Shown one piece after another: positions 8,855 through 58,367 of a stretch of 64,000 bases of DNA. Made by a program: the position numbers and the translations under genes. The stretch's first letter is position 1. Every line of letters begins with the position of its first letter. This stretch comes from Nemertoderma westbladi (taxonomy: Eukaryota; Animalia; Xenacoelomorpha), in the NCBI GenBank assembly GCA_032718475.1, contig JAUCBJ010004109.1, forward strand, positions 1 to 64,000. The letters are read 5' to 3'. The notes beneath the pieces were generated by a model, which did not search any database, was not told the origin of the DNA, and worked only from the letters and a program-made list of their open reading frames with translations.

Positions 8855-8866
8855 GTAATACGCGCA
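8855..8866 (+). promoter_or_regulatory. Non-canonical primer-binding site complementary to the element's own LTR
   Basis: The sequence after the LTR is GTAATACGCGCA, with no TGG. Positions 8856-8866 are the exact reverse complement of TGCGCGTATTA at 7804-7814. Confidence 0.65.
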
Positions 8867-12327: not shown

Positions 12328-13502
12328 GGTCTCTATAGGGGTGTCTTTAGCAGGCGGCGGCGGACTCGTGAGGGTCTGGGGGCACGTTAAAATCTGCCGT
12401 ATAGTGCAAGGGAGTTACTTAAGGCCCTCGTGTCTAACGAACCATGAATCGACATGGTGCCGTGGTATCGTCTAGTCGGCCTGTTGCCGTACTGCCAGTC
12501 CTGTACACAGTAGGGGTGGTGGCATGGCGTGATTTGTGGTTCATGTGGTGTGAACTGTGATTTGTATGTGGGCGACCAGTGGCAGTTAGCTTTGGGGCTT
12601 GGATGTGTGCCATTGACCGTCAGCTGTTCCGTTTTTTTGATACTATATGTTATTGTCTCCATGTTCAGCTGATTGGTCCTTGGAGTGTGTTTAGGTCTGA
12701 GATGAGCTTTCTGTTGCTGTGGGTACGTGAGTACACGTGATTGTATGTGTGGCCACTGCGAGTGAGTGTGGGAAACCTTGCCGGTTGGCCCAGACGCCGC
12801 TGGTATTAGTAGGACCATACTTTACTGCGCCCCAGCATACTTTGTGCACACAAGTTATTTTACCCTGACGGTAAAATAAGGTACTCTCGACTTTCTCATT
12901 CTCTCTCAAGTCGATACAACTAGTCCCTCCCGATTTTGACCCCGATTTTGTCTTTCCCGATTATGTCCTCTGTGTGTGCATGGTATGTGTCAGATTTTGT
13001 GTTTACCGTAGTGTACTTGATATTGTGAACATCTGTTGAGTACACGTGTATAGGACTGGTAAGTGGTTACTTGTTCCTAGCTTTCGAGCTAGTCAGTATT
13101 GTTTGCGGAACTTACTTCCCCTCAATACTGCCGGCGAGGCGGGTGAAAATGTGTCAAAATTCCATGTGGGGTAGCGCAAGCCCACATGGGACAAGACCGT
13201 CGGTTAGGCCCAAGGGCGACCTTGGTGCTTGATCGCTATCGACTGGTCCACCCGCCGGTTGACTCTCTGAGTTGGCTCAATGTACAGTCAGGCCACAGTG
13301 AGTTGACAGTAGCGGCCCATCTGGCTACACGTTCGACGAGCTGTGCCGGTGTGATCGGGGGACCGAAAACAGAACCCGGGAAGCATCGGGCCACCCTCCG
13401 GCCCGGTCTGATAATAACATCAGTCAGACTGGCCCCAGGGGTGGTGGAAAGGTGTCCGCCTCGTGGGTGCGCCTCGGGGAGGAGCCCAGAAGGACACAAG
13501 CG
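12314..13502 (+). ncRNA. Putative group I self-splicing intron within gag (3' end uncertain)
   Basis: P1 AAAGAU(12308-13)/GUCUUU(12343-48) with U.G; P3 GGCGGGUG(13138-45)/CACCCGCC(13249-56); P4 13149-55/13195-200 with A-rich J4/5; P5 13160-91; P6 CGGUUA(13201-06)/UGAUCG(13230-35) plus a GCGA-capped P6b; J6/7 CUA; P7 U-C(bulge)-GACUG(13239-45)/CAGUCA(13285-90); P8 13257-77; J8/7 CAAUGUA; several P9-region hairpins; candidate terminal G at 13502. Confidence 0.8.
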
Positions 13503-16500
13503 TTATTGAGGAAGCTTGGGTCAGGGCCTCGGCGCGCAAACCATCGCGAGCGCTAAGGACTGACACTGAGTCAAGCGATGAAGAGGAAGAAATGAGACGT
13601 CAGAAGTCCCGAAACTATAAGGAAAGAAGGACGGACGCGGAGCAGGTAAGTTGGAACCACCGGGAAAGGACCAGACTTAGCAACCCTGCGGAACTAAACC
13701 ATTTGTTAACCCGGAACGACGCAACCCTTAGAGACATAGGTAAGTTTGCTGCTAGGCAAGGACTGCCGACGCAACAACCCCAGAAGTTTATGGGTAACCA
13801 CAAGCACTGGAGGACCTTCAAAACCTATGTCGACGAGCAGCTAACCAACAGCACCTTTACTCCCAACGAGAAGTTCAACTATTTGCTTCAGATGCTCCAT
13901 CGAGAACCTAGAGCCATTGCTGATAACTTCGTCGGCAATGAACGGGCATTCGAGTTAGCGATGAAGACGCTTAGTGACATCTACGGGAATAAAACCAAGA
14001 TGGCGCAGTCGATAGTAGAAGACTTGGGTAAGGGCGGAAGGATTACAACTCCGTTAGAGCTGTTGAACTTAGCGAACGCTATTTCGAACGCATTGGACAT
14101 CTTGAGGACGGTGAATCTACCTCATCATGGTGATCACGCCGAAGTTTTGAAAAGCGTAATAAGACGTTTAAACATGCGTTACAGACAGAAATGGCGCAAA
14201 TTAGAGAATAAGTTGGAGGGCCAAGGTAAAGTATTGACACTTCAGCATATTCATGACATGATAGCCACAGACGCAGTAGCAGATATGAAATCAAACTTCT
14301 CAGAAGAGAATATGAGGGAGTCTAAACCTGTTACCGGTAAGTCTATGGTAAGTTTTGACGATGACAGGACCACTGTGACATTTAACTCAGTAGACAGATA
14401 TAATTCGAGTACCCCAGCCTTTAGATCAGACTCGCGAGTATGGTCAGGTGAGCGGTTAGATAGACCTAGGTTAAAGCAACAGGAGTTACCGGATGGATTT
14501 GTAGGTTGCCAATACTGTTTACTAAAGGAGGTAAGATCTGACGACCATAAGTTAGATAGTTGCAGACGGTTCAAAGAATTAAATTCGGAACAGAGAAGAG
14601 TTCAAGTGCGGACGTTGGACACCTGTTGGGCATGTCTTGCGCCAGGTCATGTACGGCGGCAGTGCCCTAACAGCAAGGACGGATGCATGGAATGCGGCAG
14701 ACTACATCACAAGTTGCTACATGCGGATTTCCATACCCCAACGGACCGTTACTTACAGCGAAATCCTCACAGGAAGGGGAGCAAAGAACCCGTATCGATA
14801 AGGAGGAATACATACACTGGCATCCGGGACGATGGTTACCAACCAGGTTCGTCGGACGAGGATGGCGAGTCGAGCGCGAGAGAAGTGACCTGCCAAGGTT
14901 TCACCGCGGATAGTTCATCGACCAGCGCGCGGACGTATTTATCATCGGCCACGTCGGAAATATTTAGCGTGATTCCGGTGAAACTCACTGGCGATAAGGG
15001 ATCGAAGCGAATATATGTGATGTTGGACACTGCGTCCACATTATCATATATCGACGAGGAAGTGGCGAGAGCCGTTTCTAGCTTCCAGGACGCCGAGGAG
15101 ATCCAAATAGAGTTGAAGTCTATGCATGGGGTAGGAGACCTCAAGGGACACAGAATTTCGGTGGAACTAGATTCCCTACTTCCGAGAGACCAGCATACTC
15201 GACAAGAACGGAAAGCTTTGCCATTGGACGGATTTAAGTGTCTAGCTATGAAGGGATTCGGCAGGCAGTTAGGTAAGGTGCCGCCGATGAGTCCCATAGC
15301 ACAGGAGTATTTTGACAAGCTCAGGATACCCAGACACCAGGTAGGTTATAGGAATGTTTCTATGTTAATTGGTGCAGAACAGCTGATCGCACACCAGATA
15401 TGGGAAACGAGACCAGCTGAGCCGCATGTCAATGGACCACATGCCCATAGGACCATACTAGGTTGGTATACACGAGTACCCATGTCTTATGAGTTTACAG
15501 GTGGCGACAAGCCAATGGACAGATACGACGAATTACAGCCTATAACTCAACCACCGTTAGTAGAACCACCAGACATAGACGAGTTTAGGAGAACCTGCAT
15601 TGACCACTATAGTGACTTTAGCGAGTCGGACGAGGAGTTGATTCCCGATAATGTTAGGTTGTCGGAACCACTTCATAACGACCGGACAGATAGTGAACCC
15701 GAGGACTACTGTTATCAGACCCGTGGGTCTGGTTCAGCGGCCCACGCTACCTATTTGACTAACGTTTTGACTTATACAGACATAGTGGAGGGTCAAGTGG
15801 CTAAATATCGAGACCTAGACATTTTCCAATACAGTGAGGAGGAATTACAGAAGGAATTGATACGCCAGGACCTCGAGACAGGAGCCAGAACCGTCGAATG
15901 GCTGGATAGGGACGCAATGGAACCCGGTGGATATGACCTAGCCATGTCTACTGATGAGAAACGGTCGCTGGAGATGATGGAAGACACCATACGTCTGCTA
16001 CCGACTGGACATTTTGAAGTTGGAATGTTGTGGCGTCGACAACCACCTAAGTTGGAGAACAACTACAACTTAGCCTTGAAAAGATTGAACGGAGTAAGGG
16101 CTCGGTTGTTGAAGAATCCGGACATTAGGGAGAAGTATTGCGCCCAGATCAACAACTATTTCGCCAAGGGATTTGCTGGGAAGGTAGAGGACCCTGACTT
16201 AGTGACAGACCAGACTTATTACCTTCCACACCACTATGTGACTCACCCTGACAAGCCAGACAAAGTCCGAGTAGTCAACGACTGCGCAGCAGTCTATAGA
16301 GGTATGTCCCTGAATTCAGAGTTGATGGATGGTCCCAACCTGAATAACTATTTGATAGGAATACTGTTGCGTTTTAGACAGCGGCGATTCGCATTTACTT
16401 GTGACATCGAGGCGATGTTCCACCAGGTAAGAGCCTGTAAGGCAGACCAGGATAGCCTTCGCTTTCTCTGGTACGAGAACGAAGACTTATCCGGCCCAGT

Positions 16501-18364
16501 GGTTACATACCAAATGTACGTTAGGATATTTGGCGCCCGCGATAGTCCGAACGGCACGCTGTTTGTTCTAAAGAAAACGGCAACAGCCCAGATTGGTAAG
16601 TACCCAGTAGAAGTAATCGAGTCCATCTTGAGAAACTTCTATATGGACGACGGATTGGTGTCCAAGGACACGGCGGAACAAGCCATAGAAGTGGCTCACG
16701 GCCTGCAAGAGTGCTTGGCTACAGGGGGATTTCCTCTGACCAAGTTCACTACTAATTCGGAGGCCCTATTAGAATCGTTCCCGGTAAAAGATCGCGGGAG
16801 CGGAGACATAGAATTGGGGGTAGAACCAATCCCCATGGCGCGAGTACTGGGACTCGCTTGGAATCCGAATTCAGACAAGTTCCAGGTAAGAGTTAGATTT
16901 GAGCCCAGTAGCCCAGACAAAGTTTTGACAAAGAGGATTTGCTTATCGACATTAAGTAGAATATTTGACCCGATGAACTTTATCAGTCCGGTTATATTAC
17001 AGGCACGAGCGTGCATGAGGAAAATTTGGTTGTCCGACTTAGAGTGGGACGAACCAATATCTCCTATACATGCAAAGCAGTGGAGGGAGTGGGAAGCCGA
17101 GTTGCATCTGTTGAAAAATATAGATGTACCCCGTTCCTACTTTCCGAATCAGTTGGTATTTCCAACTGATTTAGAGCTGCACCTATTTAGTGACGCAAGT
17201 GACACCGGCTTTGGTATGGTAGCCTACCTTCGCCGAGAGGTAAGTCAGGACAAGTTTGAGACGGCCTTTGTGACTTCTAGATCAAAGACAATGCCGGTCA
17301 AATATATGACTGTCCCTCGTGCAGAGTTACAGGCGGCTGTAGTTTCGGTCGAGGTAAGTAAGCAGATAATTGAGGAGTTAGACACGACATTGACCTTATT
17401 CTATTGGACGGATGCATCCTTGGTGTTAGTATACATTGCGGCCGACAATATTGCACTAAAGACATTTGTGGCCAATAGACGCGCTCAGATCGTTGACTTT
17501 TCAACGAAGGAACAATGGAGACATTGTCCGGGAGTGTTGAACCCGGCCGACATAACTTCGAGAGGTGCAATGCCGGCGGAATTCTGTCGGGAAGAGTCGC
17601 AGGAGTTTTGGTTGCATGGACCTGATTTTCTAACAAGGACACAGGAACATTGGCCAGAGCGACTAAAGATAGTGACCAATCCGATGCCTGAAGATGCAGA
17701 AGTCAAAGTGGAGAAAGTCTCTAAGTCGAAGTCTAAAGCCAAACTTAAGTCATTGGAGCGGCCTGAAGAGTCATTGGAGCGGCCTGAAGAGTTATTGGAG
17801 CGGCCCGGAGACCTGTCAGACCAACAGACTTACGTGACTACTAGGTCAGGAAGGGTAAGTTATGACGTAAAACCACCCTTACAGACTAAACCGGAGTCAC
17901 AGTTGGTAAGTGACGGACAGAAAATGACCGACACAATGGAGCCTTTGGTTTCCAAACCTGCGGGTTTGGATTCGAAACTTCCATTGGTCAGCGGACAACC
18001 GTCGCTGGCATTAGAGTCATGCAGTATTTATGACAAATTACTAAATTCGTCTGCCTCTTGGCTGACAATTTGTAAAAGAACTGCGTGGTTAAGCCGATAC
18101 GTTTCGTACCTTTGTTTAAAACATTCGAAACATTTGAGAGAACCATCGAGCGCCAATAGTGAGCGAATTCGGAAATTGAAACAACCTCTGACAGAGGATG
18201 AGATTGATCAAGCGGAATTAAAGCATTTGAAACACTATCAAATGTGTGCCTTCCCAAAAGAATTCCATCTATTATCGGCTCAACGACTAGTTCTCTATAA
18301 ACCCCTTAGAAAATGGAGTCCATTAATCCATAAGGGTTTGATTTGTCATAGATCGAGAATCTAG
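13503..18364 (+). CDS. gag-pol: BEL/Pao Gag core, zinc knuckles, protease, reverse transcriptase and RNase H (putative exon 2; ORF track 13463..18364)
   Basis: Gag core KFMGNHKHWRTF...EKFNYLLQML; knuckles CQYC..H..C, CWACLAPGHVRRQC, CMECGRLHHKLLH; PR LDTAS; RT DIEAMF and YMDD; RNase H FSDAS, ELQA, WTDA, NPADITSRG. No convincing own start (the track start is GTG). Confidence 0.95.
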
Positions 18365-19615
18365 ACTGTCGACATAAACTCACAGTTTCGGTTCCCAGTG
18401 ATAATCCCTAGTCACCCAATAGAATTGCAAAGAGCGATTCTATGGGATATACACAAGAGGTTGCATCACGCGGGAAAGTTACACTGTCTGTCGGCAGCGA
18501 GACAGCGATTCATTCTATTGCAGCCAAGCAGGGCAGTAGGCACTATGTACGACGCCTGTCTGGTTTGCAAGAGAGTGAACGCCAGAGTATTGGAACAGGA
18601 GATGGCTGAACTCCCGGAAGCGAGAGTGCAGGCATATGACCCACCCTTTACGAACACAGGGGTGGATTGTTTTGGTCCGATTGAGGCAAAGAGTGGACGG
18701 CTGACCCACAAGCGATGGGGTCTGCTACTGACATGTATGGCGAGTAGAGCCATACACATCGAGCGTGTGGCAGACATGTCGACCAAATCTCTGCTCCTGG
18801 CCTTAAAGAGATTTATGGCCAGGAGAGGACTAGTAAAGGCGTTCTACTCTGACAAGGGTACAAACTTTGTCGGAGGGAATAGCGAGTTGAACGCGGCTCA
18901 TAAAGCAGCACAGAATAAGGAAATTTCTGCAGCACTTTTGCCGCAACGAGTAGAGTGGAGATTCAATACTCCAGAAAGTCCTTGGAGAGGAGGAAGTTGG
19001 GAGCGTTTAGTTCGCTCTGTAAAGCAGGCCATTGCTAAGACGTTGCCTGTAAACAAACAACTTACCGACGACGAACTGGTTACAGCTTACATTGAAATCG
19101 AGCATACCCTAAACTCGAGGCCGATAGCTATGTTGCCAGACGGTGTTGCATTAACGCCGAATCATTTGCTAATGCAGAGTCCAGCATTTCTTGTGCCGGC
19201 ATCAGAACCCATTAGTGCCGACCTATATAGTCGTAAGAGCTGGAAAGTAACACAGTTAGTGGCGTACACATTCTGGGAATATTGGCGGGAATACTATCTT
19301 CCCACCATATCTACCAGAACAAAGTGGTACAAGACGGTTCGGAGTCTCCAAAGGGGAGATTACGTGTTGATAACCGAGCCGATTATCAAGAGAAAGTATT
19401 GGGAGACAGGAGTTATCTTGCACACACACCCAGACGCGCAAAACATAGTGCGCACAGTCACTGTGAAAATTAGGTGCAAGTGTCCGCACCCAAAAAAGTG
19501 TAAAACTGATGGTTTGCACACCTTGGACCGACCGGTCCAAGATATTGTGTTATTAGAGGAGACACGTATCGAGACGGGAGATTATAATTTGTCTCCTGCC
19601 TCAAAACAGAGTTAG
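18365..19615 (+). CDS. Integrase, same frame as pol, separated by a single TAG
   Basis: HHCC (IHKRLHHAG...CLVC), DCFGP, SDKGTNF, GGSWERLV. The frame continues RSRI*TVDINSQFRFPVIIP across TAG 18362-18364. Confidence 0.93.
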   Translation, partial: TVDINSQFRFPVIIPSHPIELQRAILWDIHKRLHHAGKLHCLSAARQRFILLQPSRAVGTMYDACLVCKRVNARVLEQEMAELPEARVQAYDPPFTNTGVDCFGPIEAKSGRLTHKRWGLLLTCMASRAIHIERVADMSTKSLLLALKRFMARRGLVKAFYSDKGTNFVGGNSELNAAHKAAQNKEISAALLPQRVEWRFNTPESPWRGGSWERLVRSVKQAIAKTLPVNKQLTDDELVTAYIEIEHTLNSRPIAMLPDGVALTPNHLLMQSPAFLVPASEPISADLYSRKSWKVTQLVAYTFWEYWREYYLPTISTRTKWYKTVRSLQRGDYVLITEPIIKRKYWETGVILHTHPDAQNIVRTVTVKIRCKCPHPKKCKTDGLHTLDRPVQDIVLLEETRIETGDYNLSPASKQS

Positions 19616-20373
19616 TGTTGGACGCAACTCACTTCGTATGCATTCCTCGTATGCAAATACAAGGAAATGCATAGGAGCGGGGTTGTGGTGATTTGCGTTG
19701 AGTTTTGTCTGGTGGGTATCAAAACAAAATTTTATTTCAAAAATTTTGGAAAAAATTAGAAAATTTTAAAAATTAGAAGTGAACCCAAGACAATTCCAGA
19801 CGCTGTGTATAGACGCGTTTTAGAATTCGTCTATAGATAACAGTAATTTGAAAGTCGTGAAGCCTGGAAAATAGCATTTAGAAACCATGGTGACGGCTAT
19901 ATTACGTAGGAGTGTAAATTGAGTTTAGCAACTTCCACAGATTGGTGCCAACAGTGCAACTAAGGTGCTAAAGGTTAGTAGCACCAGAGGCGTGCACGGA
20001 CCCCACTCAGTAGTTTGCAGGATGTGTGATGTTCGATTATCAAACCTGTGGGTTTGGTATAGTCGAGTATTGTGGCTATGGTCCTTTCTAACTACTGTAG
20101 TTTAGTACGAGTAATGGGAGTAGTTTGGGCATCAAAAAGTGAGTTGGTCACGGCCAGTTTATCTCCAAAGTTTTTGCGCTATGCATGGGAATAGGTTAGA
20201 GGATAGTTAGTTAGGAAGAGACGGGATCTAGAGAGTCGAACCTGAACTGCTGGAAGGCGGGGGGGGTTCGGGAGGTCTGTCCTTCGGCGACATCTAACTG
20301 ATTTACCCACAGTGTAGTTGGTTACGTAACGGCACTTATTGGGATATATATATATGTATATACGCGTAACATA

Positions 20374-23300
20374 ATGGAGAGGGATATTAGAGCGCAACCG
20401 CGCAGAGGATTTACTGCCAGAGAGGAGGCGGAGCTACCATTCGCGCGACCAGGATGTAAAGACTCTAACATTTACTACCATGGGCGGTCCGTGATGGAGC
20501 TGAACGGGAAGTACAAACCAAGTTATGATAAAGAATTACGGAGAGAAAGAATGAGAGCGTTGGGGGACCGGATGGAAGTCTTGCGGAGAGAGTATCGCAC
20601 GCGGTATCCCTACGACTTTGCTTTGGACGTGTGCGACATTAGCGCAGATCCGGACGAGGAAATCGCACGACTATACCATATGAATATGTATTTACGACAT
20701 GAGGAGCCTCTACCTGCAGTCCGAGACCAGTTCGACGGAATGCACCTGTATCGGAGGACTCGAGGCGAGGATCAGGAGACGCCGAAAGTCTTCGGCGTAT
20801 ACAAGCTCTTCTACAAGTGTGGTGAATGCATGAATAAACAGGACGTGGCGATTCCCGACCGATTAGACGAGCAACATCCGGAACCGATATTAACGCGATG
20901 TCCAGCTCACCAATTCCTTAGATACAACGAGGGAGGTTACCCGATGAGCAACCCGATGATCAGTATCGACTTCAGCGGAAAGCGACCTCCGAGACCCATT
21001 ACGCCGACCGTTACGACATTAGATCCGTATACGGAGATTAAACCCTGTTCGACACCCAGTTTGATAGAGACGGCAGCGGCCATTTCGCTGTACCGAGCCT
21101 ATAAGGATCTAGAGGCGCGGCGCGAAGCGGCGCGGGACTCGGGTACCAAACCCGCGGGTTTGGAGCTCTCGAGTCCCTGGACTGCGTTTACTTCACCTCA
21201 CCGAGTGAGAAGCCTCACGCCTGAGCATCAGGACGACATAGACGCGTTGCGGCAGGAGGAGCGAGCGGCGAAGGCGAAAGAGTTATTTGAGAACAGGATA
21301 GCGGAGTATAATAAGACCGCGGATAGACATCAAGAGGAGACGAGGAGAGTGACCGGATTTGTTCCACAGGTCGTATCTCAACCCGGACCGGTGTATTATT
21401 CCGACGGCACCGAACCTGCGATATTAGTAGATCATCCGGAGTCGCGAGAAGCGATACGATTCTTGCCGATGGTAAGAATGGCGGACCATTGGAACGTTGA
21501 CTGTCTACGGGAAGTTTTATGCGCGAAGTTCTTGCGTGATGTCCCAATGCAGATCACAGATTACGACACTTTGGATAAGATTGGAGCTCCGGGGAAGGAG
21601 AGTAAACTATTCGGATGGTTGGATAAGTACATCAAGGTATGGGTCGCGGTGGCTACATTCCCAGACGACGAGGAGGTAGACCAGACGTGGCTGAGGAGGA
21701 AGGGTTCTTATACCCGATATGATGACCACAAGGCTATCGAGCGCATGTGGACCCCATCAGATGAGATTCAGCGTCAGTGGAGGAAAACGGAGGAATCACT
21801 GCAGGATTGGAGAGTGATGTTCTACGACAATGAAGGAGGGTCCCATCAGGAATGTTTGACCAGCAAGTGTATTCAAATTCGTGCGGCCGATGGTGTGACT
21901 CATGTGTTTATGCGTATGAGGGCGGATCGAGAGAGACCGGAGCCCATCATAACGACACAATATCGGAAAGGGAAGGATCCTAGGGAACCGATTTTGGAGG
22001 TATGCAGGCGAGGAGGTATGCACGGAGCGGAGCGTATCGACGCCAGGATGTTACCCAAGAAAGTTAGAGAGGCTATTCTCAACCAAGATTACGTCAAGGT
22101 GGGATCGGGAGCCCAGAGCGATTTGGAGAGCGACTTCAACGCCATGACTGATCTGGAAGATAGATTGCCGAGACCGTTTGTCGACACCAAGCTATTGTTG
22201 CTATGGGCACAGGATATTGGAATTTATAGGGAGTATCCCAACTCTGCCAAGACTGGTATGGGCTTTATAGCACACTTGTTGTATAATTGGGACTTTAAGT
22301 TAAAGACGCAAAAGAAGTACGAGGAGGCGTATGGCGAATACAACACGCCACCGGGAGCGGAGTTCAAATCCCACTTCAAGCGGCAAGCGTTAGTGTATTG
22401 GAACATTTGCGCGCCACCCCGTGCGTCGCTACAATATTATTTGGTGCTTGAGTCGAACACGGTGACTTGTTTATTAGCGGATATCGTTGCGCGAGTTTTG
22501 AAGCGTCATCCATTGGTATTCGGAGGAGATCAATACGTTCGCTCGAAAAGGGGAATCCAATCCGACGTGATGAAGCGTTTCTTAACCCCGTTCTTCAACC
22601 AATCGTTAGAGAATACGTCGATGGTGAGGAGAGGATTAGCGATATTCGAAGGAGTATATCGACAGAACATCGGAGATTTGGGAGACCGACCGTCGATGGA
22701 ATATCCGACGCCAGAAGCTTTGGAGAAGTGGTTCGGGAATCAAACCCGCGGGTTTGGTACTCCCTTCCACTCGGAGGCTGATAGACCTGTTAAGGAGGGC
22801 TGGCCGGAAACGTTAGTAGAGGTGTTCGGAGTAGATCTTCCGGTGGAGAAGACATATCCGAAACGAACGCGGGAGGAAATATTGGAGATAGAGGACAAGG
22901 GCGAGGATGTTTACTTTGTTCCGGATCGACAACCGTTGACCGGAGAGGACGACATCGTATTAGACATTGGGAAGGAAGGAAGTGCGAAACCGATTGGAGA
23001 CCTCATATACGAGAGGGCCTGGTTTCCACAAGCGCGTAGGTGCAAATTGTGCGGCAGCACAAGGCACAATCTAAAGTCGTGCGACGCGGTAATAGAGGCG
23101 GCGCATAAGGTCTGTCGTTGGTGTAATGAGACCAACCATTCGTTTCACACGTGCACCGTCTTCATTTCTCAATGTGGATATTGTGGAGTAAAAGGACATC
23201 GTAGCGCGAGATGTCAGCTGCGAGATGATTCCTTTCAAAACCATAGCGCTAACCTACTTCGGGAGATGTTAGACAAGTGGGAGAGTGTGGCGGATTACCA

Positions 23301-24210
23301 TATTCAAGCGCAGATGCGTTGGTTACCATTTAAAGCGGGATATGGGTTTTGGGCGGTAGACCCATCGCATGTTGCGTACGAGCCATATCTTCAATCGCTA
23401 CCACAATATCAGGAGCTCATCCTAACTGCTCAAGACCTTCCACAGAACACTGGAGTTATCGTAGTCCGAGAATACTTCAGACAATTGAACATGGACAATA
23501 AGTACACATGGAACTTCGTTGCTATTTGCGATCGCATCACGAAGGGTGTATTTACGGAGACTAGAAAAGTGGTACGCGCGCGAGGTGATTGGAGGATGGC
23601 GGCTATACAATACCGCAACGAATTCTTGTTGACTCATGTGCCAGTGGGTTCATTGACCGCCGAGAGGATACAGGAACAAAGGATCGCAGCGACCACAGCG
23701 ACGACCGCTGGAGCTCAAGGCTCGCGGAAAGAACCAGGAGGAGGGGTCCAAGACAAGCGTCAAGTCAAGGACGACCACTACCACTCCATTATAGAAGCTC
23801 AACGGTTGCAGCGCAAGGCGCAGGGGGCGTCTGAGAAAGCGCGTGTGCAACTGCAGAAGGAAGAGTTGGCGGAAGCGACCACGGGAGCGCGACAATTGGG
23901 ACGAGGCCGAGGGAGAAGTTCGAGCCGAGAATCTGTCGGGGCTCAGGGAACGTCGTCGTCGGTTCCGGGGAGTGACGCCTCACGGACGCCGTCAACGGAG
24001 TCGACTAGAGGTAGATTAGTGTATCTTGGGAAGGGGACGAAAGAGAGGAGCGAGCCCATAGAACCCAGGAGCGGGTCGATAATACATTATGGCACAGGGC
24101 GACAGACTCTAGATATATACATCATCGTCGCTCTGATGTATATTGTAGCATTTGAAAATTTTCGACTAGACTCGTATACACTAGTTGAGTTATTTGAATT
24201 TATATTATGA
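20374..24210 (+). CDS. Accessory ORF3 (1278 aa): DEDDy 3'-5' exonuclease-like domain plus three CCHC zinc knuckles
   Basis: ExoI VMFYDNEG (~21814-21837), CIQIRAADGVTHVF, ExoII LPKKVREAILNQDYVKVGSGAQSDL, FVDT, ExoIII-like W..APPRASLQYYLVLE (to ~22452). Knuckles CKLCGSTRHNLKSC, CRWCNETNHSFHTC, CGYCGVKGHRSARC (23041-23214). Intact ORF inside the LTRs. Confidence 0.8.
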   Translation: MERDIRAQPRRGFTAREEAELPFARPGCKDSNIYYHGRSVMELNGKYKPSYDKELRRERMRALGDRMEVLRREYRTRYPYDFALDVCDISADPDEEIARLYHMNMYLRHEEPLPAVRDQFDGMHLYRRTRGEDQETPKVFGVYKLFYKCGECMNKQDVAIPDRLDEQHPEPILTRCPAHQFLRYNEGGYPMSNPMISIDFSGKRPPRPITPTVTTLDPYTEIKPCSTPSLIETAAAISLYRAYKDLEARREAARDSGTKPAGLELSSPWTAFTSPHRVRSLTPEHQDDIDALRQEERAAKAKELFENRIAEYNKTADRHQEETRRVTGFVPQVVSQPGPVYYSDGTEPAILVDHPESREAIRFLPMVRMADHWNVDCLREVLCAKFLRDVPMQITDYDTLDKIGAPGKESKLFGWLDKYIKVWVAVATFPDDEEVDQTWLRRKGSYTRYDDHKAIERMWTPSDEIQRQWRKTEESLQDWRVMFYDNEGGSHQECLTSKCIQIRAADGVTHVFMRMRADRERPEPIITTQYRKGKDPREPILEVCRRGGMHGAERIDARMLPKKVREAILNQDYVKVGSGAQSDLESDFNAMTDLEDRLPRPFVDTKLLLLWAQDIGIYREYPNSAKTGMGFIAHLLYNWDFKLKTQKKYEEAYGEYNTPPGAEFKSHFKRQALVYWNICAPPRASLQYYLVLESNTVTCLLADIVARVLKRHPLVFGGDQYVRSKRGIQSDVMKRFLTPFFNQSLENTSMVRRGLAIFEGVYRQNIGDLGDRPSMEYPTPEALEKWFGNQTRGFGTPFHSEADRPVKEGWPETLVEVFGVDLPVEKTYPKRTREEILEIEDKGEDVYFVPDRQPLTGEDDIVLDIGKEGSAKPIGDLIYERAWFPQARRCKLCGSTRHNLKSCDAVIEAAHKVCRWCNETNHSFHTCTVFISQCGYCGVKGHRSARCQLRDDSFQNHSANLLREMLDKWESVADYHIQAQMRWLPFKAGYGFWAVDPSHVAYEPYLQSLPQYQELILTAQDLPQNTGVIVVREYFRQLNMDNKYTWNFVAICDRITKGVFTETRKVVRARGDWRMAAIQYRNEFLLTHVPVGSLTAERIQEQRIAATTATTAGAQGSRKEPGGGVQDKRQVKDDHYHSIIEAQRLQRKAQGASEKARVQLQKEELAEATTGARQLGRGRGRSSSRESVGAQGTSSSVPGSDASRTPSTESTRGRLVYLGKGTKERSEPIEPRSGSIIHYGTGRQTLDIYIIVALMYIVAFENFRLDSYTLVELFEFIL

Positions 24211-24623: not shown

Positions 24624-26801
24624 TGTTACGGTATATGGCGCTGTATCCACAGTATTAGTCCATTATGCAGTATGCAGTATTAGTCCATTATGCAGTATGC
24701 AGTATTAGTCCGTTATACTGTACGTAATATTAGTCCGTTGTGCAGTATAATTATTTAGATAAGGCGCAGTGTGGTGACATTTAGGTAAGGAAGTTAAAAC
24801 GCCCATATATTTTGCATCCATTCATTTTGTATAGTATGTAGCCCTACCTACGTAATTTTGTATTAGGATATATGTAGATAGTTCCAGGGTAGCGAGTTTA
24901 CTCGGACCCTGGATTTTGTGCTTGCTGATATTAGTTTGATAGGGCTAGCATATAGGGACGCTGTCCTGGCCATTCAGCAGCCAGAGACGTGATCCATTAC
25001 CATATATGGTAATAATTTGAGGGCATAGGGCTACAATCCGGTCTCCTTATTGGATTAACTGCTTCCAGGTTGGTTTAATGCTAGCATGGACTGGAGAGCC
25101 AATGGGAGAGCGATTGAGTCACCTTATTGCATCACCCCATCCGGATCACCTATAAATTGGCGGTGTGCCGGTAGGGCCTTTGTTGTTCATATGTTCATGC
25201 CTTATCACATGACACACCCTTGTTACAATTTACTTGCTGAGCTGTCTCTAATTTCGTATTAGGATATCGTATTTTCTGCAATTTGCTAATTTTGATTAAT
25301 TTCTTGGAATGATTTGCTAGTGCGATTACTTTGCTTGTGTTTCTCAATAATTCCTTCGATTACTGCTAATTACAATTGAACTATGATTTCTACCTTTGAT
25401 TAATGGTTCTATGTGATTCTTTTCTGCGCAATAATCCCAAGGGATTCCTGAGACTGTCAGACTTTGTGATTTGCATGCGCCGCTACGGTAGCTATTAGCA
25501 TCATGGAGGGCTAAGGTGCCAGTGGGCGGTGGGCGCATCGGGGGGTTGAGCGACTAGGAGAGAGCGGAGGATTCAAAGCGGGCAACGCTGGCCAGGGTCA
25601 CCGTTGCGGGCGGGTATCTTGCACTGCGGCACGCAGACCGATCGCCGGTACAGTATCTAGGGGGCTGATGATCCAGGTTTTGTCTCTATTTAGTATTAGG
25701 GGGGCAGGAATTGGGTTAGTTAGGAATCCTAGATGTACCCGGGAGAGGCCTGCGCGTATTATAACGTTGAGTGTGGAGTACGAGTAGTGAATTGCACAAT
25801 TGTAAACTGTGATTTCTAACGCTGATTGGTGTGTTATTGAAGTGTGCCTAAGATTACGAATGCTTAGATAGGCGCTCTTTTTCCTTTGATTGATTTCTAT
25901 TTCTTAGTTACAATAATTAGTTATTGATTAGGTCAAAGTAATACGGCAATTTAGGCTATTACTAGCGAAACCTGTTGCGTGATAAATTAGAATTACGTAT
26001 TCTGGAACTCTTAGTAATTAGTACGCTGTTAAATATTTGTGACTGTAATTAATTAGTAAAAATTAAGAATTAGTACGCAGCATAGCGGAGAGTAGCTAAG
26101 GTAATAATTAGTGTACTGTAAACTATTCACGCTGAGCGGTTATTTGCATTAGCGGACAATCAGCTAGAACGCACTATTCGGTACGCACGATATGCTAGTA
26201 ATTTTGCTGGCCTAAAGCCAGTCGCGGGCAGTTTTAGACTCGGAGTGGTATTATCCACGTAGAAACAGATACTGTACCATTTTGATATTTTAAATATTCT
26301 CGCATTCACACATTACGTTAGGGAACCTCCAGTATTCGCGATTAGAAAGACGTAGGTAATAGCGTGCTTTAATAGTGATAAAATTAGGCGTAAGAATACT
26401 CTGAGTGCAAGGCCTCTCGCACTCGTCTTAAGTAAGCTTAGGGAGCCGACTCGGGTTTATTGTTTTGGTTATTCCCGCGTGGCTCATAGATTCGAACAGT
26501 TAGCTCTCTATCGAGCGATCGGTAGAGAAAGGAACAAGCGATTTTGCAGGAGTTGTGTAAAATTAGTAAAATATATTAGTGGACGGCAGATTAGCGCCAT
26601 CTAACGGTAAGTAGCGGTTTTGTATTTAGCAACCCTTACAATTTAGTAATAGCACGCTCCTGATCCCCTTTACTTAACAGTAGAGCAGTCTTTGTGTCTT
26701 ATTGGATAGGCGAGAGCTTATTAGGTTGGCAGAAGGATATTAACGGGTATTGGTCTGTTCAACAGTTCTGCTGTTAGTATAGAGGTCGCGGTTGTTTATC
26801 A
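24624..26801 (+). repeat. 3' LTR (2178 bp)
   Basis: Near-identical to the 5' LTR and followed by TSD CTAGT. Confidence 0.97.
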
Positions 26802-29800
26802 CTAGTTTATATCTGAAACATATCGAGATGAAAAATAGAAACAAAATTTATAATTTATTTTTCCTACTTTTTGTTTTTGATCGTGGAAGGAAAATCGGCA
26901 TATAAGTAGAAGAAGGAGACCCCAGAATAGGATAACCCCGGCCCATATTCGGTAGACGACCGTGGTACCGAGAAAGTCGAATAGAACGCCATTGATTATG
27001 GATCCTAGACCAAGTCCAAGGCCGGTGTGAATATTGTTGACCAATCCTATACTAAGTCGATCCAGACCTGTAAAAAAATTATTATCACAACAAGAATTCT
27101 AATGAAACGAAATCAGCAAGTAATTTAAAACAAAAATATATTGGAATAGGTTACTTTATCGAACATTAACCTCGCATATTATACCATCCTTCCGTTTTTC
27201 TTCCAAACACTTTGTTTCCATAACAACATAACATTAGCGAATGCTGAAACTGAAGAACGTGCACCCACAATCACTCAACCCAGTTGTAAGGTACAATTCT
27301 TCTACTAGTAGCCCACTCAGTAAATCTATCACGCTGTAATTCCTTCTATTCACACTTATAACTTATATGTTAGTCCGACTTCTCTATTTCTATAGGCCTA
27401 TTACATTCTGTAATCAATAACTAGAGGAAGTTACCCATGTGTTACCGTGACACGCCTAAAACCTACCCTAACAACCCAAGGTCATTCTCCATAGTCATAA
27501 TCTCATAAGAATTTAAAAATCCATATTAAAAACAATAATTGAGAACAAAGCAAGGGCATGATGTACAATGATGATGATGATACTCACTCATATACCGGGT
27601 AGATTCATATACACACTCCAAACTACAATGTTATTCACTGGTTATAATCCCACACACTCAGCATAATAAGCCGCGATAATTGTCGTATTATATAAGGCTT
27701 TTAAATAGCGAGTCAAGTGTGGAGAAAATCATCAATGTTCCTCGGCCAGGAAATCGTTGTCCTCTCATCGTATTTACTTATTTAATGATTGAATGTGATT
27801 ACACGATGAATATTGCTTGAAAGATAAGCTACTATGTCACATATAATGTAAACAATAAGGTCATGACAAATAATTAAATGATAAGCATGTCCCTTTGGGG
27901 CAGCATCGTGCTTGATACTGTATGACAAATTATTTAGGATATCCATGGATGTCAAGGAAATAAGATGTTCATGTATCAGAAGTACTGGAGTTTCCTCTGG
28001 GGAGTATAGTTTTGGGGGGACCGCACTTGAAATAAGTCGTCAGAATTCGTGCGTAATCACCGGTCTAACGGCCAATGAAAACGTTACTTTACTTTACTTT
28101 TACTTTGTGCATTGAGAATAAATATAAACCTCATGCACCACAGCACACAAGCATACTTACTGAATATACAGTTATATCATAAGAATCACATACCTGGAGG
28201 TGCTGTGTTTTCTATGTGGTGCGCCACAACAACCCATAAAGCGCAACTTCCGGCAACATTGAGTATTTGCACCGGCACCACGGCCCAGGAATACCACAGC
28301 AAACTGTAGTACACCAACCGTAGAAATGTTGTTAAACAATAAACTATAACTACACCGAGCGGAGTCAATTTCTTTAACAATACTGAGGCTGCGAAAAGTG
28401 TGACAACCTCTGACATTGTGCCAGTCGCAATGGAAACGCCATTAACCAAATCGGAACCTTCCAGATCCTGAACAAGCCAATATAAGTAATTCAACACGGC
28501 GCTTAGAATGAAACCATCGAATATAATAGTGGCGATATACAGAATTGAAAGCGGTTCTTTGGGTAGAAGTCGTATGGCTTTGATGAGTTTCGGTTTATGT
28601 TTGTATTTGCTGGGTGGAGGGGAGGGGTAAAAGATACCCATGATAAAGGCCAAACTAGCGAAGGTGCAGTATAGGTAGAGGTGGATGGTGTAATGTGAGA
28701 TATCGAATGATAGATGGCATGGCGTCACAGTGATTATATAAGAGGACAACATGGATCCAATTATGAAACCTAATTTGCAGTAATACTTGTGGATATTAAA
28801 CTTTTCAATTTCGTCCAAGTTATCAATGTAGATATATAGCGATTCCGAAGCAACCGTATCTATAGGAGAAGATAGTACTTCACCAACAATAAAAATACTA
28901 ATTATGATAACAAACGACTTATTGCTAAGTTGGTTCATACTTTCGGCCAAATTGTTAACACCTCCAGTCCAACCAACATTAGTTTTAATCCATCTAGCTT
29001 TAATATCTATTCCTCGCGCAAACCTTTTAAAGTAATTATCTGGTGTAGAATCACTATCATTGTCAGTAGTTGATACGTTATCATTAGCTAAATTTTGCAT
29101 TTTCTCTATTACACCTTCCAAAATTCCATGAGTTTTTTCTAAATCTTCTTCAAAGGTATCATAAGAAGCTAAAGGTGTTGTAGAAGGACTTACGATTGAA
29201 ATGTTGTTGAAAAGATGCCCATTCGTTCCATTGCTTCCATTGCTTCCATTGCTTCTATTGCTTCCATTGCTTCCATTGTAAATCTCTAATGTTGAAGTTG
29301 TAAATGTCGCTGTCGTTCTATTTAGACTTGGTTGCGTAGCATTTAATTCTTGCGGTAAATGCAAATGATTTGTATGATTATCAGATGCAATAAAGGTTTC
29401 GTTACTTTCTACAAAGTTATTATGATCAGATAAAACAGTATCTGAGCCGGTGTTCGAATCTGTTTGACAGTACATTAGCTGATGGTCAGACCGAGTTGTG
29501 GGTACTAAGGTGAGTCCCAGGTACATCGAGACAGTGGAAAATAAACTGATCATGAGGAGCAGTTTCAGTTTGTCGTGGATCAGAGCTTGGCGACATAGAA
29601 GAGGTGACGCAATGGATGACACTATAGCCTAGAACATAACAAAAACATGGCCAAACAAATATAAGTTTCTTAAGATATCAAAAAAAATTAAAATTCAGTT
29701 TATAATGTTCTCAAAATTAATGTAAATATAATTTGTATTAAAACATGGCATAGACGTAATATAAATTAAAATTATGTCATCAAAACTCTAAACTGGCAAA

Positions 29801-30269: not shown

Positions 30270-30910
30270 TCTCTTTGTGGACAAAGATTGTCCCTCAGGA
30301 AAAGAATACAAATAAGTTGGTCCCTGCCCCAAAGAACGGCAACCTAACAAGCCGTGGATCATTTCGTGGAATCTCGTTGATCTCGATTGCTGCAAACCTA
30401 TGCAATAGAATTCTTGAAAGAATTGACAGCCCTCAAGAAATGTCACCTCAAGGTTCGATTATTTAGGGCAGCAGTAGTACCAGTACTCTCATGGGAGTAC
30501 ATGATGGGCTCTAACTGCAGAGGATACCAAATCGCTGAGCCGCTAGCTGAATGGTTAGAGCGTGAGACATCCAATCCGTAGGTCACCAGTTCGATCCCGC
30601 CAGAACGTCATTGCCATCTTTGCAAAGCTGTAACCAACAAAAGTTATAAAATCTTAACAAGAATGCTACGCCGGGTTCACTGTGTGAAGTACAATAAACT
30701 CATCTCCAACCAGACACTATACAACATTGGAGATGTTTCATTAGTCTTCCCTTATTTGACACTTGAAGGAAGCTGCCTCTGCTTTGCAGGACATTGCTTT
30801 CGCCTTGAGGACCAGCGGTGCATAATCTTGTGCTTTGGCAGCCTCATGGAGTGAATAAACATGGTGAACGGACCATGACTTTCATGAGACGCATCTTAAA
30901 GGACACTGGA
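30270..30910 (+). mobile_element. Degenerate, internally deleted RTE-clade LINE fragment
   Basis: NKLVPAPKNGNL..GSFRGISLISIAA, LKVRLFRAAVVPVL and MLRRVHCVKYN...FAGHCFR are near-identical to the RTE ORF at 35756-37366. Confidence 0.85.
30537..30655 (+). mobile_element. tRNA-derived SINE or tRNA pseudogene nested in the RTE fragment
   Basis: A box TAGCTGAATGG and B box GTTCGATCC at tRNA spacing; acceptor and anticodon stems do not close. Confidence 0.55.
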
Positions 30911-31089
30911 AACTGCATATTACCATATCGATTACTATATATTTTATTTTAGCAGGAGAAATAAATCATTGTCCATAGGGTTAAACTTTCTTTAATATCT
31001 ACTAAATAACCCGTTTATCAACAAGAGTTTTTTCCATTTTTATTTATTATAAATAATAATAGTTTGGAAAAAAATAATTAAACCGCACG

Positions 31090-31400
31090 ATGAACTGGAG
31101 CTCCGACAATTCGCGCCCTAGCGGCAGACGGAGGATCTGTAAAAGTCTGTCTGTGTGTAGAAATTCTAATTAAGCAATGCTAGTAGGTTACTACTACCAA
31201 ATTTCAGATGAATCTGATGGTTGGTTCTATAATTCAACTACTTTTACGTTCCTGTCAATTCGCCACCTAGCGGCAGATAGAGGAACTAATAATCTGTCTG
31301 TGTGTAGAATTTCTAAACTTTTGATAGACTACATGTGTACAAAGTTTGGTTCCATTTCATCCATTATTGAACGACTTAGGCGTTCAAACATCCCTGCCTG
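31090..31400 (-). repeat. Fragment of the same repeat family as 48038-49313
   Basis: Two TTCG...CCTAGCGGCAGA units, the reverse complement of the TCTGCCGCTAGAGGGCGAA unit motif. Confidence 0.5.
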
Positions 31401-31495
31401 CCACAAACACAGCCAGCCAGCCTCACACTGCAGGAACTCGAGCAGATCTCCAGTGATTATTAAAATACTCCTGACAAAAGCCACCACCTCTTTCG

Positions 31496-31790
31496 GCTGG
31501 GCGCAGTGGCGAGCGCCTGTAATCCGAGCGACTTGGAGGCCGGGATTGGAGAACCGCTTGAGTTTGGGGCCCCTATCGGGTTCTGTGCTATGTCGATCGA
31601 GCGTCCGTGCTAAGCTCGGCGTCAATATGGTTGGCCTGTCGGAGGGCGGGCTGACCAGGTTGTCTAAGGAGGAGTGAACCGGCCCAGGGCGGTGACGCAG
31701 CAGGCAAAAGCCCCCACGTTGTGCAGTAGCGGGATAGCGCTTGTGAATAGGCAGGTTCGGTAGCCCAGGCAATAGAGTGGGACGCAATCC
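31496..31790 (+). ncRNA. RN7SL: 7SL signal recognition particle RNA (metazoan type)
   Basis: Alu-domain start GCTGGGCGCAGTGGCGAGCGCCTGTAATCC; helix 6 GGAG loop; helix 8 CCAGGGCG-GTGA-CGCAGCAGG; GGGATAGCGCTTGTGAATAG; ~295 nt long; AT-rich box TTATTAAAA about 35 nt upstream. Confidence 0.95.
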
Positions 31791-31799
31791 TTTTTTTTT
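31791..31799 (+). terminator. Pol III terminator (T9)
   Basis: T-run immediately after the 7SL 3' end. Confidence 0.85.
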
Positions 31800-34700
31800 G
31801 CGGGGTGTTTTACGTTTGTTTTTCATCCTACATTGTATTCAGAACAACTGACCTTTTCGAATTTCCTGGCTGCACGTATCCCAAATATTCTTGATCTACT
31901 CTCTTCCACAGTAATCCCATAGAAGTCATTAGATTTATATTTTAAAAAGCCCGCGTAAATAAATATATATATTATTTTATTATCACTTGTAAGCAAATGT
32001 CAGTGAAAAAGGTTTAGCCAGTGCCGCGCAATCAACAATATACTACAAATTAAACTACACCGCAAATAAACTATTCCGCAAACGCGTTGCCTCTAGAAAT
32101 ACAGTATTTTGTGGAAGCATTTATTTCAAGCTGTGGGAGAAACAGCCAGCGTATATATCACTCGATAAGAGGCACTGCTGCTGCAAACCTTTCCCTATTT
32201 GCCCCCCATTTAATATGATACACCACTGTGAGTATGGCAAGATCTAGACACTGTCACACCACTCTATATTATGCAGTTGTTAGTTGATAACCATTATGAG
32301 TCATAGAATTTGTAGCCAATCATAGTTCACCGTGTTTCTCATATGATATAGGTTGGGAAACGTGGAAAATAGGGGAGGTTTACAGCTCGGAAATGCTTAG
32401 GAATATTGATTGTACTATCTTTGTTGTGATATGATGGGTGAAATTCAGTTCACGGTGTGGACAGAGTGCATTGTTGGTTGGAATGAATAGTTCAAAGTTC
32501 AAACAAATGTTCGAACACAATTAATGAGTGCGAGAAATGAGCTGCACCGACCATCTGACATGTTTAAATTTTAATATTCAAATTGTAGGTTAATTATTAA
32601 ACAGCCGCTTTGGTCTAGTAAGTGTAGATAATCCTGAGAAACCCCGGACGAAGTAACACTGTTTGGGCTGCAGTGACAGTCTATGAATGCTGCAGGCCTG
32701 CTCGATCGATTCAGGGTTTTCTTTGGGAAGACGATGGGAAAGTAGTTTATGGCACATCACCTATGTGGTGAACAGGCATTGGCTTATAAGCTCTAAAGAG
32801 TCCCTCGTTAATAATTTTTAACCTTTAATTACCATACATATATCGGCGTCGTCACGAGATGATTCGCCTGCCGCGCCGGCTCCTCAACTCAACACCTACT
32901 ACACACTACACAATGGAGAATACCTGGATTTCAGTTTCCGGTCGAAATTTTGTAACTGTAAAGTACTTTGCAACAAGTATTTATGAAGTTTTATTCCAAA
33001 ATTTAAATATTACGAAATGATTGTACATATATTATAAGTGATAGAAGCTGCACAAATTAAATTATTTGCTGTATAAATAAATGTAAAAGTGACATAGATT
33101 ATGATATAAAAAAGTTAGCTTATATTTATGGTGGCGTTTGGAGCCATGTTAATGATATAGCTACTCGTTATTAATAGCTATACCCCGCCTATCGGTATGT
33201 AATGCAGTAGGTATATCTGGCTGTCAGGCAAATTTCCACCTATTGTTTACGTGGTACCCAATGACGGCGTTAAGTAATGTCCACTAACGGGACATTACTT
33301 AACTGATAACACCAAATACAATACTAAATGTACAGGCCAATACAATGCTGTAATGTCCTCAAAAGTTGTAAAGTGCTAAATAACAACTCGCTATTAATAC
33401 TAACGGCGTTGAGTAATGTTACAATTTTGGAATAATAAATAGTAATATAGATATATAACAAATAATTTTTTAAATTGACGAAAAATGACATGAGTGCTTT
33501 TCCTGACTAAATATGTTTGTAAAATCTCCTATATTTGAGATTGGAACTTGGAGAGGACGTACTGTAATTACGATTAATAGCAATGCAAAATATATAGTCA
33601 AAGCATTATTGTAAATGTAAGATGGCGGTGCAGTGCGGCTGCGGTGCAGTGCGGACTACGGAGCGTTCCCAAACGTAATCTGTAGGAAAGATCAAGACAG
33701 CTATTAGACGTAGTGCACTGCAGTTAGCTCGCCCATTAATCGGAAATAAACCCGAAGGTACCAGATGGTTTTAATCTTTGGTTTCCCTATTGTTACACCC
33801 ACCCATCAGCCTCCAGCCTGGCGCCAGAACAACGCCACGCAATTATCTCGGCAACAACTTCACTAATACGACGATATATAATATTCGGTAGCTCCGAACC
33901 GACTTGCACACAATTCAAATCTAATACCAAAGTGAAAACCCGAGAAGACAAGATAAGGAATATTGTTGGTTTGATAATCTTTTGTGACTTCTAGAAATCA
34001 TAAGACAAATGACTACAAAACTGATGTGTTGACAAAAATAATAGGCCTAATGAGGGGAATAATTTCTTCGGTTCATTAATTAAGCATTAATAATGTATAA
34101 TTAATAATATAATTTAATTATATATAATATTATGATTAATAATTAAGTATCAATTAATTATTACATGTTCACCCCCATGGCTGGTCTTCAGTTACGCTTT
34201 TTTCTCGAATAAATTCACAATGTTGCATGTAGGATAAATCGATAAGGTAACTGCCGGCTTCCCATAGTGGCTATTGGCTATTAATTATACATATTTACTG
34301 AACATTACGTGCAGTACAGTACACGCGTCCCGATTAGTTTGCTTTCTATCTCCCTTTTGTACTTCCCTTCATTGATTTATTTCTTGCTGGACATCCTGAG
34401 AATGCCTTCCATTTTGGGGCGAAGCCGAACCGACCAACTAACAACACAGTGAAATAATAATAATCATTACTGATTCTATGCAACACTAGCTAGATTAATG
34501 TTTCCTCAGAATAAAAATAATAGGCCTACACATAAAAGTGTTTCAATAATGGAAATGGAGTTGGTGGTAGCAAAGCTAGAAGAGCATGTACCGTACAGCA
34601 CAATAGATATTAGCTTGATAATTAAAATATAAGAACAAATTCGAATCAGCTACTAACAATGTATTTAATCCTAGACCTAAGGGACGGCCCGATAAAAATT

Positions 34701-35755
34701 TGAAAAAAATTAATTCTAGGGGGTCTACGGGGCCAACGAAGCTTTCCGATTGGACGATATTATTTTCGCCTATTACTACGGGAAGGAACGGTTTTAAGTT
34801 AAAACATGTACAAGAGATATGGTCGGGAAGCTCGAGCTCTATCCAACGGAAGCGGTCCCGGGATCGTAAATTAAGAAGTTCTAGAGATATAGAGGAAAAT
34901 TAACGAATCGTTAAAAAATGCAGTAATTAGCAATTATCGCTAATTAAGAGCGAATTAATTAATCGAATCTCGAAATTAACAGTGCCAATCGATGGGAAAC
35001 AACGAGAGGAGCTCGCCAATTTTTTAAATTTTCGAAAAGACCCAGCGGAAGCCGAGATAAATGGATTTTCGTAAAATCGGGGTCCCGACCACCTAGTCGA
35101 ATAACGGAGGCGAATCACCACCTTTGGGAAATAGGCGAAAATATACCGAAAAAGCAAAACGAGCGATATTGATTTAAAATTCGAAACTTTTTGGTCGATA
35201 CGGGTTCGCTAGTGGACGATATACACTATTTTAGTTAATTTATCCAAAAGGGTCATTTTTATGATCTTTGATCATGATCTTTATGATCTTTGGCCTAAAG
35301 CATGGAATAAGAGTATTTTTATATCTAGTTTTAATTCATACGTTATACGCAAAGTCTATGGGAACATTTCCAGATATACTTTAAAATTTAGCTTTGAAAT
35401 TTATATCATTTGTTCACCCAGCCATGCAATGGCTGGGTGAACCACCAAAATTTTAAGTGATGATATCCGCAAAGCCTTTAAATACATTATAGGATATAGG
35501 GTGGTGGGTGGGGATAGTGATTAGTGTTTATACATATAGTTAGGTAATTATTGTATATAAAGCAAGTTGTTATCAAAGGAAATGGATATAGCTTTATGTT
35601 ACGAAAGTCAATGAATTTAGATTTTCCAAGTTACGAATAATACACTATCGCCACCTTTTAGCATAGGAGAGCATATATACAACTAGTTTAAATCTATGTA
35701 CGTGGAATATAGCGGAACACTACTAGGATCGGCATGCTGCATTGCAGCTGCATTT

Positions 35756-58000: not shown

Positions 58001-58367
58001 CCCCGTTTATTCCACCCCCCACCCCGTTTATTCCACCCCCACCCCGTTTATTCCACCCCCAACCCGTTTATTCCACCCACCCCGTTTATTCCACCCACCC
58101 CGTTTATTCCACCCCGTTTATTCCACCCACCCCGTTTATTCCACCCCCCACCCCGTTTATTCCACCCCCACCCCGTTTATTCCACCCCCAACCCGTTTAT
58201 TCCACCCCCCACCCCGTTTATTCCACCCACCCCGTTTATTCCACCCCCCACCCCGTTTATTCCACCCACCCCGTTTATACCACCCACCCCGTTTATTCCA
58301 CCCCCACCCCGTTTATTCCACTCACCCCGTTTATTTAATTTAATTTAATTTACATTTAACTCCAGAG
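55046..58367. mobile_element. TA-flanked Tc1/mariner-type MITE carrying a large minisatellite
   Basis: TA|CTCTGGAGT...ACTCCAGAG|TA ends. The left subterminal AATAGACGGGG is approximately the inverse of the repeat core CCCCGTTTATT. Confidence 0.7.
55375..58335. repeat. ~3-kb 18-21-bp C-rich minisatellite
   Basis: Unit CCACCCCGTTTATTCCAC with variable C-run length. Confidence 0.97.

Follow-up and report, generated by a model that had tools for sequence, protein, structure and literature searches.

A nuclease-like gene in the env slot

The first 64,000 nucleotides (nt) of contig JAUCBJ010004109.1 of Nemertoderma westbladi (assembly GCA_032718475.1, forward strand), hereafter the window, contain a BEL/Pao retrotransposon bounded by long terminal repeats (LTRs). 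Between its integrase, whose stop is at 19615, and its 3' LTR lies an intact open reading frame, ORF3, set off by 758 nt on the integrase side and by 413 nt on the LTR side (Table 1). An earlier note on this DNA, made from the letters alone, had described the frame as encoding a DEDDy 3'-5' exonuclease followed by three CCHC zinc knuckles instead of an envelope protein.

The motifs read in that note are present with one correction. ExoI is D485-N-E487, and ExoIII is Y689-x3-E693, with Glu replacing the usual Asp. ExoII had been rightly placed, ending in D583, but its spelling is KVGSGAQSD583, that is KVGS-G and not KVG.G. The three knuckles, starting at residues 890, 914 and 934, all match CX2CX4HX4C exactly. 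The part of the protein without assignment, put at about 700 amino acids (aa) in the note, is nearer 860 aa. None of the homologues in hand aligns to the N-terminal 470 aa, the post-knuckle module matches no Pfam family, and the whole protein has no Pfam match and no significant sequence match in PDB. Pfam finds no HRDC domain behind the exonuclease, but it also misses the exonuclease itself; the profile comparison described below favours EXD2/WRN.

The product does not resemble an envelope protein. Its N-terminus is hydrophilic, in agreement with the reported lack of a signal peptide or fusion pattern, and residues 1-1240 hold no strong hydrophobic stretch (highest 19-residue hydropathy 1.34). 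The claim that no furin pattern occurs has to be amended, as one R-x-K/R-R site is present (RSKR, 723), with no fusion peptide behind it. A borderline hydrophobic stretch in the tail (1245-1263; 1.65) coincides with a region where other copies have frameshifting indels. These two features are insufficient for an Env glycoprotein, which was rejected as a candidate: the folded part (462-745; residues 1-461 lie outside the model) is a predicted nuclease.

Fold and active site of the exonuclease domain

A profile built from eight nuclease domains returned 11 rows, the best four of which are EXD2 (E 0.001), WRN (0.003 and 0.004) and Egalitarian (0.079). An alignment-based model of residues 462-745 reached a mean predicted local distance difference test (pLDDT) score of 63.5 and a predicted template modelling score of 0.66, while a single-sequence AlphaFold model was uninformative (pLDDT 34). 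With the former, Foldseek matched EXD2 and NrnC, EXD2 being the best (E 8.6e-4), and realignment (VIA) gave Aedes Nibbler as the closest structure (Z 12.0, root-mean-square deviation 3.7, 179 residues aligned). All of the best 50 rows of this realignment are DnaQ-like domains, in keeping with the fold that the earlier note had anticipated. The ExoI register, on which the fold result rests, is the one in which E-INS-i and alignment A2, itself trimmed to that register, place it against the D-x-E of the homologues. From the ESM Atlas came no more than leads (scores of 0.86-0.91) to DNA_pol_A_exo1, in some cases together with zf-CCHC.

Conservation of the catalytic acids was counted in a 14-row alignment in which five rows belong to one family and P0001, a relative with a decayed nuclease, was left out. 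The D-x-E of ExoI is kept in all 11 rows covering it. An acid stands at ExoII in every one of the 14 rows (9 Asp, 5 Glu; register read by eye) and at ExoIII in all 13 covering rows (10 Asp, 3 Glu), with a Tyr four residues ahead in 12 of the 13. The window protein carries the set D-E-D-E (D485, E487, D583 and E693, with Y689). The predicted DEDDy fold is almost certain; an active nuclease is likely, and RNA rather than DNA as the substrate is probable, if held a little less firmly.

Relatives in other BEL/Pao elements

A phmmer search of 1.84 billion representative proteins with residues 440-1009 gave 8 matches (E 1.5e-8 to 5e-4; 514-727 aa). In each, a nuclease-like N-terminal half is joined by a linker of variable sequence to tandem knuckles and the post-knuckle module, although the nuclease half is decayed in P0001 and truncated in P0007; P0001 carries two tandem copies of the knuckle and post-knuckle module. 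Use of the post-knuckle pattern on metagenome contigs led to 12 confirmed loci among 374 candidate stretches. The homologues in other BEL elements that the earlier note had proposed to look for are thus found as distant relatives, with BEL pol or integrase directly upstream in 8 of the 12 loci (L003, L004, L006-L010 and L012). Of the other four, L005 is a knuckle fragment without pol, and the rest either are too short or begin within ORF3. Loci L004-L012 represent one family from one assembly and L002-L003 come from another, while L001, which is P0007, is too short for context. Counting the window, the gene is known in context from three lineages, whose integrases are 29-42% identical. Locus L003 is a 9.9-kb element with gag, pol and a 722-aa ORF3, and the relatives with ORF3 are of ordinary size, about 9-10 kb.

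Other searches were less productive. Word-index searches returned nothing for residues 440-1010 or for alignment A1, although a further one gave 8 proteins, most of which resemble the L004-L012 family. No relative was found in viral contigs, and P0008 as sole query found none in metagenomes. Since the exonuclease tree is star-like, with 1 of 8 inner branches supported, no claim of origin or co-evolution is made. These genes constitute a conserved accessory-gene family of BEL/Pao elements that is apparently undescribed. Pfam does not recognise the family, so that many genomes probably lack an annotation for it.

Purifying selection among copies

Contigs of two DNA runs contain 5440 and 2630 pieces matching the ORF region, which points to many diverged copies, though it gives no copy count. 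With all nuclease-domain variants above 6% counted, 32 of 37 are synonymous against 32.5% expected (p about 2e-11), a ratio of nonsynonymous to synonymous substitution (dN/dS) of about 0.08. No indels occur in the domain and no variants fall at catalytic codons, so the purifying selection asked about in the earlier note is evident there. Over the whole of ORF3, 27 of the 38 variants listed (from 40 of 342 rows) are synonymous against 30% expected; among these, the figures are 10 of 14 for residues 1-461 and 3 of 7 for the last 178 residues. Among 12 of the 22 indel rows, none falls between the ATG and 23929, with several upstream of the ATG and several in the tail, a distribution that supports the ORF3 start and marks the tail as loose. 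At residues 515, 539 and 580 the window copy differs from nearly all copies, each time by a change of residue; these are probably recent private mutations.

The agreement of homologues, fold and synonymous bias takes the observation beyond chance. Another proposal takes ORF3 for a gene captured from the host and carried without use, to which the failure to find a close relative and the unique N-terminal 460 aa lend something. Such a passenger is hardly credible and was rejected, given the low dN/dS and the presence of the same gene in three BEL lineages.

The host element and its surroundings

The element follows the BEL-type order Gag, protease, reverse transcriptase (RT), RNase H and integrase, with Pfam matches to DUF1759, Peptidase_A17 (E 1e-39), Integrase_H2C2 and DUF5641. 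BEL/Pao elements have been reported from animals only (PMC554778). Because the two LTRs are 99.9% identical and are flanked by a 5-bp duplication, the insertion is recent. ORF1 has no significant match in a Pfam search, and the element contains no RNA family match in Rfam. A single TAG also occurs in L003, there between gag and pol.

Table 1. Coordinates of the retrotransposon, its genes and the parts of ORF3 in the window
Feature	Position	Strand	Remarks
BEL/Pao element	6677-26801	+	20,125 bp
5' LTR	6677-8854	+	2178 bp, TG...CA
3' LTR	24624-26801	+	99.9% identity to 5' LTR
Target-site duplication	6672-6676 and 26802-26806		5 bp
ORF1	10045-12327	+	760 aa, charged, repetitive; probably N-terminal part of Gag
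C-terminal part of Gag (DUF1759, knuckles), protease, RT (YMDD), RNase H region (Peptidase_A17)	13592-18364	+	
Single in-frame TAG at boundary of RNase H region and integrase	18362-18364	+	seen in window copy
Integrase frame (Integrase_H2C2, DUF5641)	18365-19615	+	
Branch-point and 3' splice-acceptor-like motif	20294-20312	+	predicted; 61 nt before ORF3 ATG
ORF3	20374-24210	+	1278 aa, uninterrupted
ORF3 residues 1-461	20374-21756	+	specific to window protein among homologues in hand
CxxC...CxxH candidate	20818-20910	+	C149xxC152...C176xxH179
DEDDy 3'-5' exonuclease domain, residues 462-745	21757-22608	+	predicted
Catalytic codon D485	21826-21828	+	
Catalytic codon E487	21832-21834	+	
Catalytic codon D583	22120-22122	+	
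Catalytic codon Y689	22438-22440	+	
Catalytic codon E693	22450-22452	+	
Three CX2CX4HX4C zinc knuckles, residues 890-947	23041-23214	+	exact pattern
Post-knuckle module (E-x2-A-D ... G-F, then Tyr)	23245-23418	+	conserved; family signature
C-terminal tail, residues 1100-1278	23671-24207	+	low complexity, weakly constrained

A host gene adjoins the element, with an MFS_1_like transporter exon at 28186-29553 on the minus strand (Pfam, E 5e-19). Elsewhere the window holds minisatellite arrays and a long inverted pair (2637-4535, 43061-45547, 55095-58336 and 30281-37159); the inverted pair, whose arms are 30281-30909 and 35847-37159, may indicate a DNA transposon.

Priming, splice-like motifs and the spacer

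The window element has no tRNA-type primer site after its 5' LTR. Instead, 8856-8866 forms a perfect 11-nt complement with 7804-7814 inside the LTR (reached in 7 of 3000 shuffles), an arrangement resembling the self-priming of Tf1. Its gag is split by a 1.26-kb gap (12328-13591) with a donor-like motif at the ORF1 stop; the second half of the gap has a stronger predicted fold than shuffled versions of it (z -4.0 from 25 crude shuffles), and the gap has no Rfam match. Together the self-primer-like match and the gap invite the idea, raised in the earlier note, that the enzyme trims the self-primer or clears an excised intron. Relatives with the same ORF3 argue otherwise: L003, L007 and L009 possess TGG-type tRNA primer sites, which are like tRNA-Lys sites, and the gag frames of L003 and L009 run without such a gap. 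Neither activity can therefore be the general role of the family, and even for the window element alone this explanation is very unlikely.

A separate question is how ORF3 is expressed. The 758-nt spacer before it (19616-20373) is structured (z -5.7), and at its end lies a short upstream frame with a stop codon overlapping the ORF3 ATG; in L003, only 2 nt separate the pol stop from the first ORF3 ATG. In the window's gag-pol frames (10045-18364), sense AG/GTRAG donor motifs are in excess, numbering 7 and 9 where synonymous shuffles average 1.4 and 2.2, and neither count is reached in any of 200 shuffles. None occurs antisense in these frames and none in ORF3 or the integrase, and L003 and L009 show no excess. 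The motifs could protect a very long RNA by binding U1, or they could act as decoys for splicing. An acceptor-like motif ahead of ORF3, a donor-rich gag-pol and an ORF3 free of donors of the strong form fit a separate spliced RNA, from which ORF3 would be read.

Proposed function

ORF3 may encode an accessory exonuclease-knuckle protein that trims the 3' ends of single-stranded RNA to blunt host RNA defence, a reading that comes first among those considered while falling somewhat short of an even chance. The knuckles would grip the RNA just short of its end, at a distance of a few bases, and deliver it to an active site with two metals, as in the RNase D of Trypanosoma brucei (TbRND), and the substrate could be immature small RNA or element RNA that has been marked, for example by uridylation. 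By general inference, a counter-defence role is favoured because ORF3 stands apart from the core genes and its family has diverged widely, and because genes of this kind occur in retroelements that are not related (PMC5408684). That the gene is separate and dispensable, yet under strong selection and much diverged, is best matched by a role against host RNA defence; counter-defence as its purpose is nevertheless put forward tentatively.

Several points weigh against RNA trimming as a defence counter. Mature PIWI-interacting RNAs are 2'-O-methylated and resist such enzymes. Confidence in the model is middling, with 73 of 284 residues below a pLDDT of 50. The fold search leaves RNases, DNases and inactive members unseparated, with Z between 9.7 and 11.8 for NrnC, Pol A proofreading domains, Egalitarian and EXD1 alike; the subfamily is not fixed because the fold rows lie so close in Z. 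Glu takes the fourth acidic position in the window protein, in P0002 and in P0006, whereas in the L004-L012 family it takes the third. The literature search found no paper showing a working Glu at ExoIII; its occurrence in relatives makes it a shared variant and not a private lesion. The ExoI Glu is gone from P0001, with its degenerate domain and duplicated knuckle module, and P0012 reads D-x-K at ExoI, which shows that the nuclease can decay. In rotifers, moreover, Rodriguez et al. report that copy number is not clearly tied to DEDDy ORF3 (PMC5408684).

The same changes suit a protein whose nuclease is weak or dead and which acts as an RNA-binding adaptor like Egalitarian, EXD1 or Maelstrom, localising or protecting element RNA. 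Asp-to-Glu replacement at ExoII or ExoIII, the state of P0001, and the match to Egalitarian by both profile (E 0.079) and fold (Z 10.7) are all consistent with it. Retention of acids at four positions across sequences only 20-30% alike is unusual for pseudo-nucleases, however, and an adaptor is considered rather improbable.

A stronger competitor, though still unlikely, places the enzyme in replication: the nucleocapsid-like knuckles would package the protein with element RNA, and the nuclease would remove 3' nucleotides that are non-templated or mismatched from the complementary DNA, as a proofreader for RT, or would clean up the ends ahead of strand transfer or integration. The best matches include EXD2, WRN and Pol A proofreading domains, and the knuckle profile matches retroviral nucleocapsids, the fingers of TbRND (E 5e-4) and, at a weak level, the knuckles of BEL Gag (E 6e-4 and 3e-3). 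The DEDDy domain of Dada transposases is likewise a proposed 3'-end processor (PMC3706591), and the window element is very long (20 kb). In all three lineages, however, the gene is separate from gag-pol, and the relatives measure only about 9.3-10.4 kb, so ORF3 does not track genome size as a proofreader might. Most BEL elements, furthermore, replicate without ORF3. On balance, the defence counter is ranked ahead of replication processing, followed by the RNA adaptor.

A bolder and doubtful extension of the defence reading is that a ribonuclease against silencing arose within BEL/Pao elements themselves, in the form of an EXD2/Nibbler-like trimmer placed in the env slot and equipped with knuckles as an RNA clamp, independently of the rotifer DEDDy genes. 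If so, an LTR-retrotransposon enzyme that destroys or over-trims host small RNAs would have been built convergently several times. To our knowledge, animals offer few examples of transposons that encode a counter to host silencing. Whatever its role, a predicted env-slot nuclease conserved across deep BEL/Pao lineages and strongly selected in a young multi-copy family offers named catalytic residues, and indicates that an exonuclease ORF3 is no rotifer oddity. It also adds an instance of the exonuclease and tandem knuckle layout that the authors of the TbRND study call very unusual (PMC7797062).

Comparison with known systems

The nearest precedent is provided by bdelloid rotifers, in which Rodriguez et al. 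(2017) described DEDDy ORF3s with a DEED motif in Juno, Vesta and Athena/Terminons and proposed the same candidate roles (PMC5408684). Like the window gene, these are non-env genes placed after pol, bear one Asp-to-Glu change and encode putative exonucleases. Their hosts are the Juno and Vesta clades and Penelope-like elements, whereas the window element is BEL/Pao. A Cys-His-Cys motif is noted in the rotifer proteins, but the available text describes no triple knuckle, the comparison being by description only (PMC5408684).

In layout, ORF3 resembles TbRND, in which an exonuclease and a linker precede tandem C-terminal CCHC fingers (fold Z 10.4), two of which bind RNA at positions 5-9 from the 3' end during cleavage by the exonuclease (PMC7797062). 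TbRND is a cellular, mitochondrial trimmer of guide RNA with four fingers, in contrast to the three knuckles of ORF3 (PMC7797062). Its exonuclease is missing from the 11 exonuclease-profile matches, which include EXD2 and WRN, and the likeness is therefore probably convergent. Closer in the catalytic domain are EXD2, WRN and Nibbler (Mut-7), the best profile and fold matches, which share ExoII KVG-x4/5-D and ExoIII YxxxD/E; ORF3 differs from them in its low identity (12-16%), extra insertions, ExoIII Glu, and its knuckles and new module as partners. The Dada DNA transposases of Laccaria and Ectocarpus also have a transposon-borne DEDDy domain with proposed 3'-end processing, but there it sits inside the DDE transposase of a DNA transposon and not in a separate retroelement frame (PMC3706591).

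Within BEL/Pao itself, priority is less clear. Cer13 of Caenorhabditis elegans reportedly contains an exonuclease (Malik et al. 2000), and if so it would be a BEL element with a captured 3'-5' exonuclease. No such statement about Cer13 emerged from the literature search, and the element carries Env (PMC9094657). An exonuclease ORF3 in BEL/Pao was not found in the available text of the literature covered (including PMC9094657, PMC11662393, PMC554778, PMC8220671 and PMC13524379), subscription papers and Repbase lying outside the search, and in the portions available two reviews mention the rotifer case alone (PMC6431247 and PMC5718144), as does PMC6338049. A claim to be the first in BEL/Pao is not secure, because of the exonuclease reported for Cer13. 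The concept is thus already published for rotifers; what differs here is the host group, the combination of an EXD2/WRN-like nuclease with three knuckles, and the new post-knuckle module.

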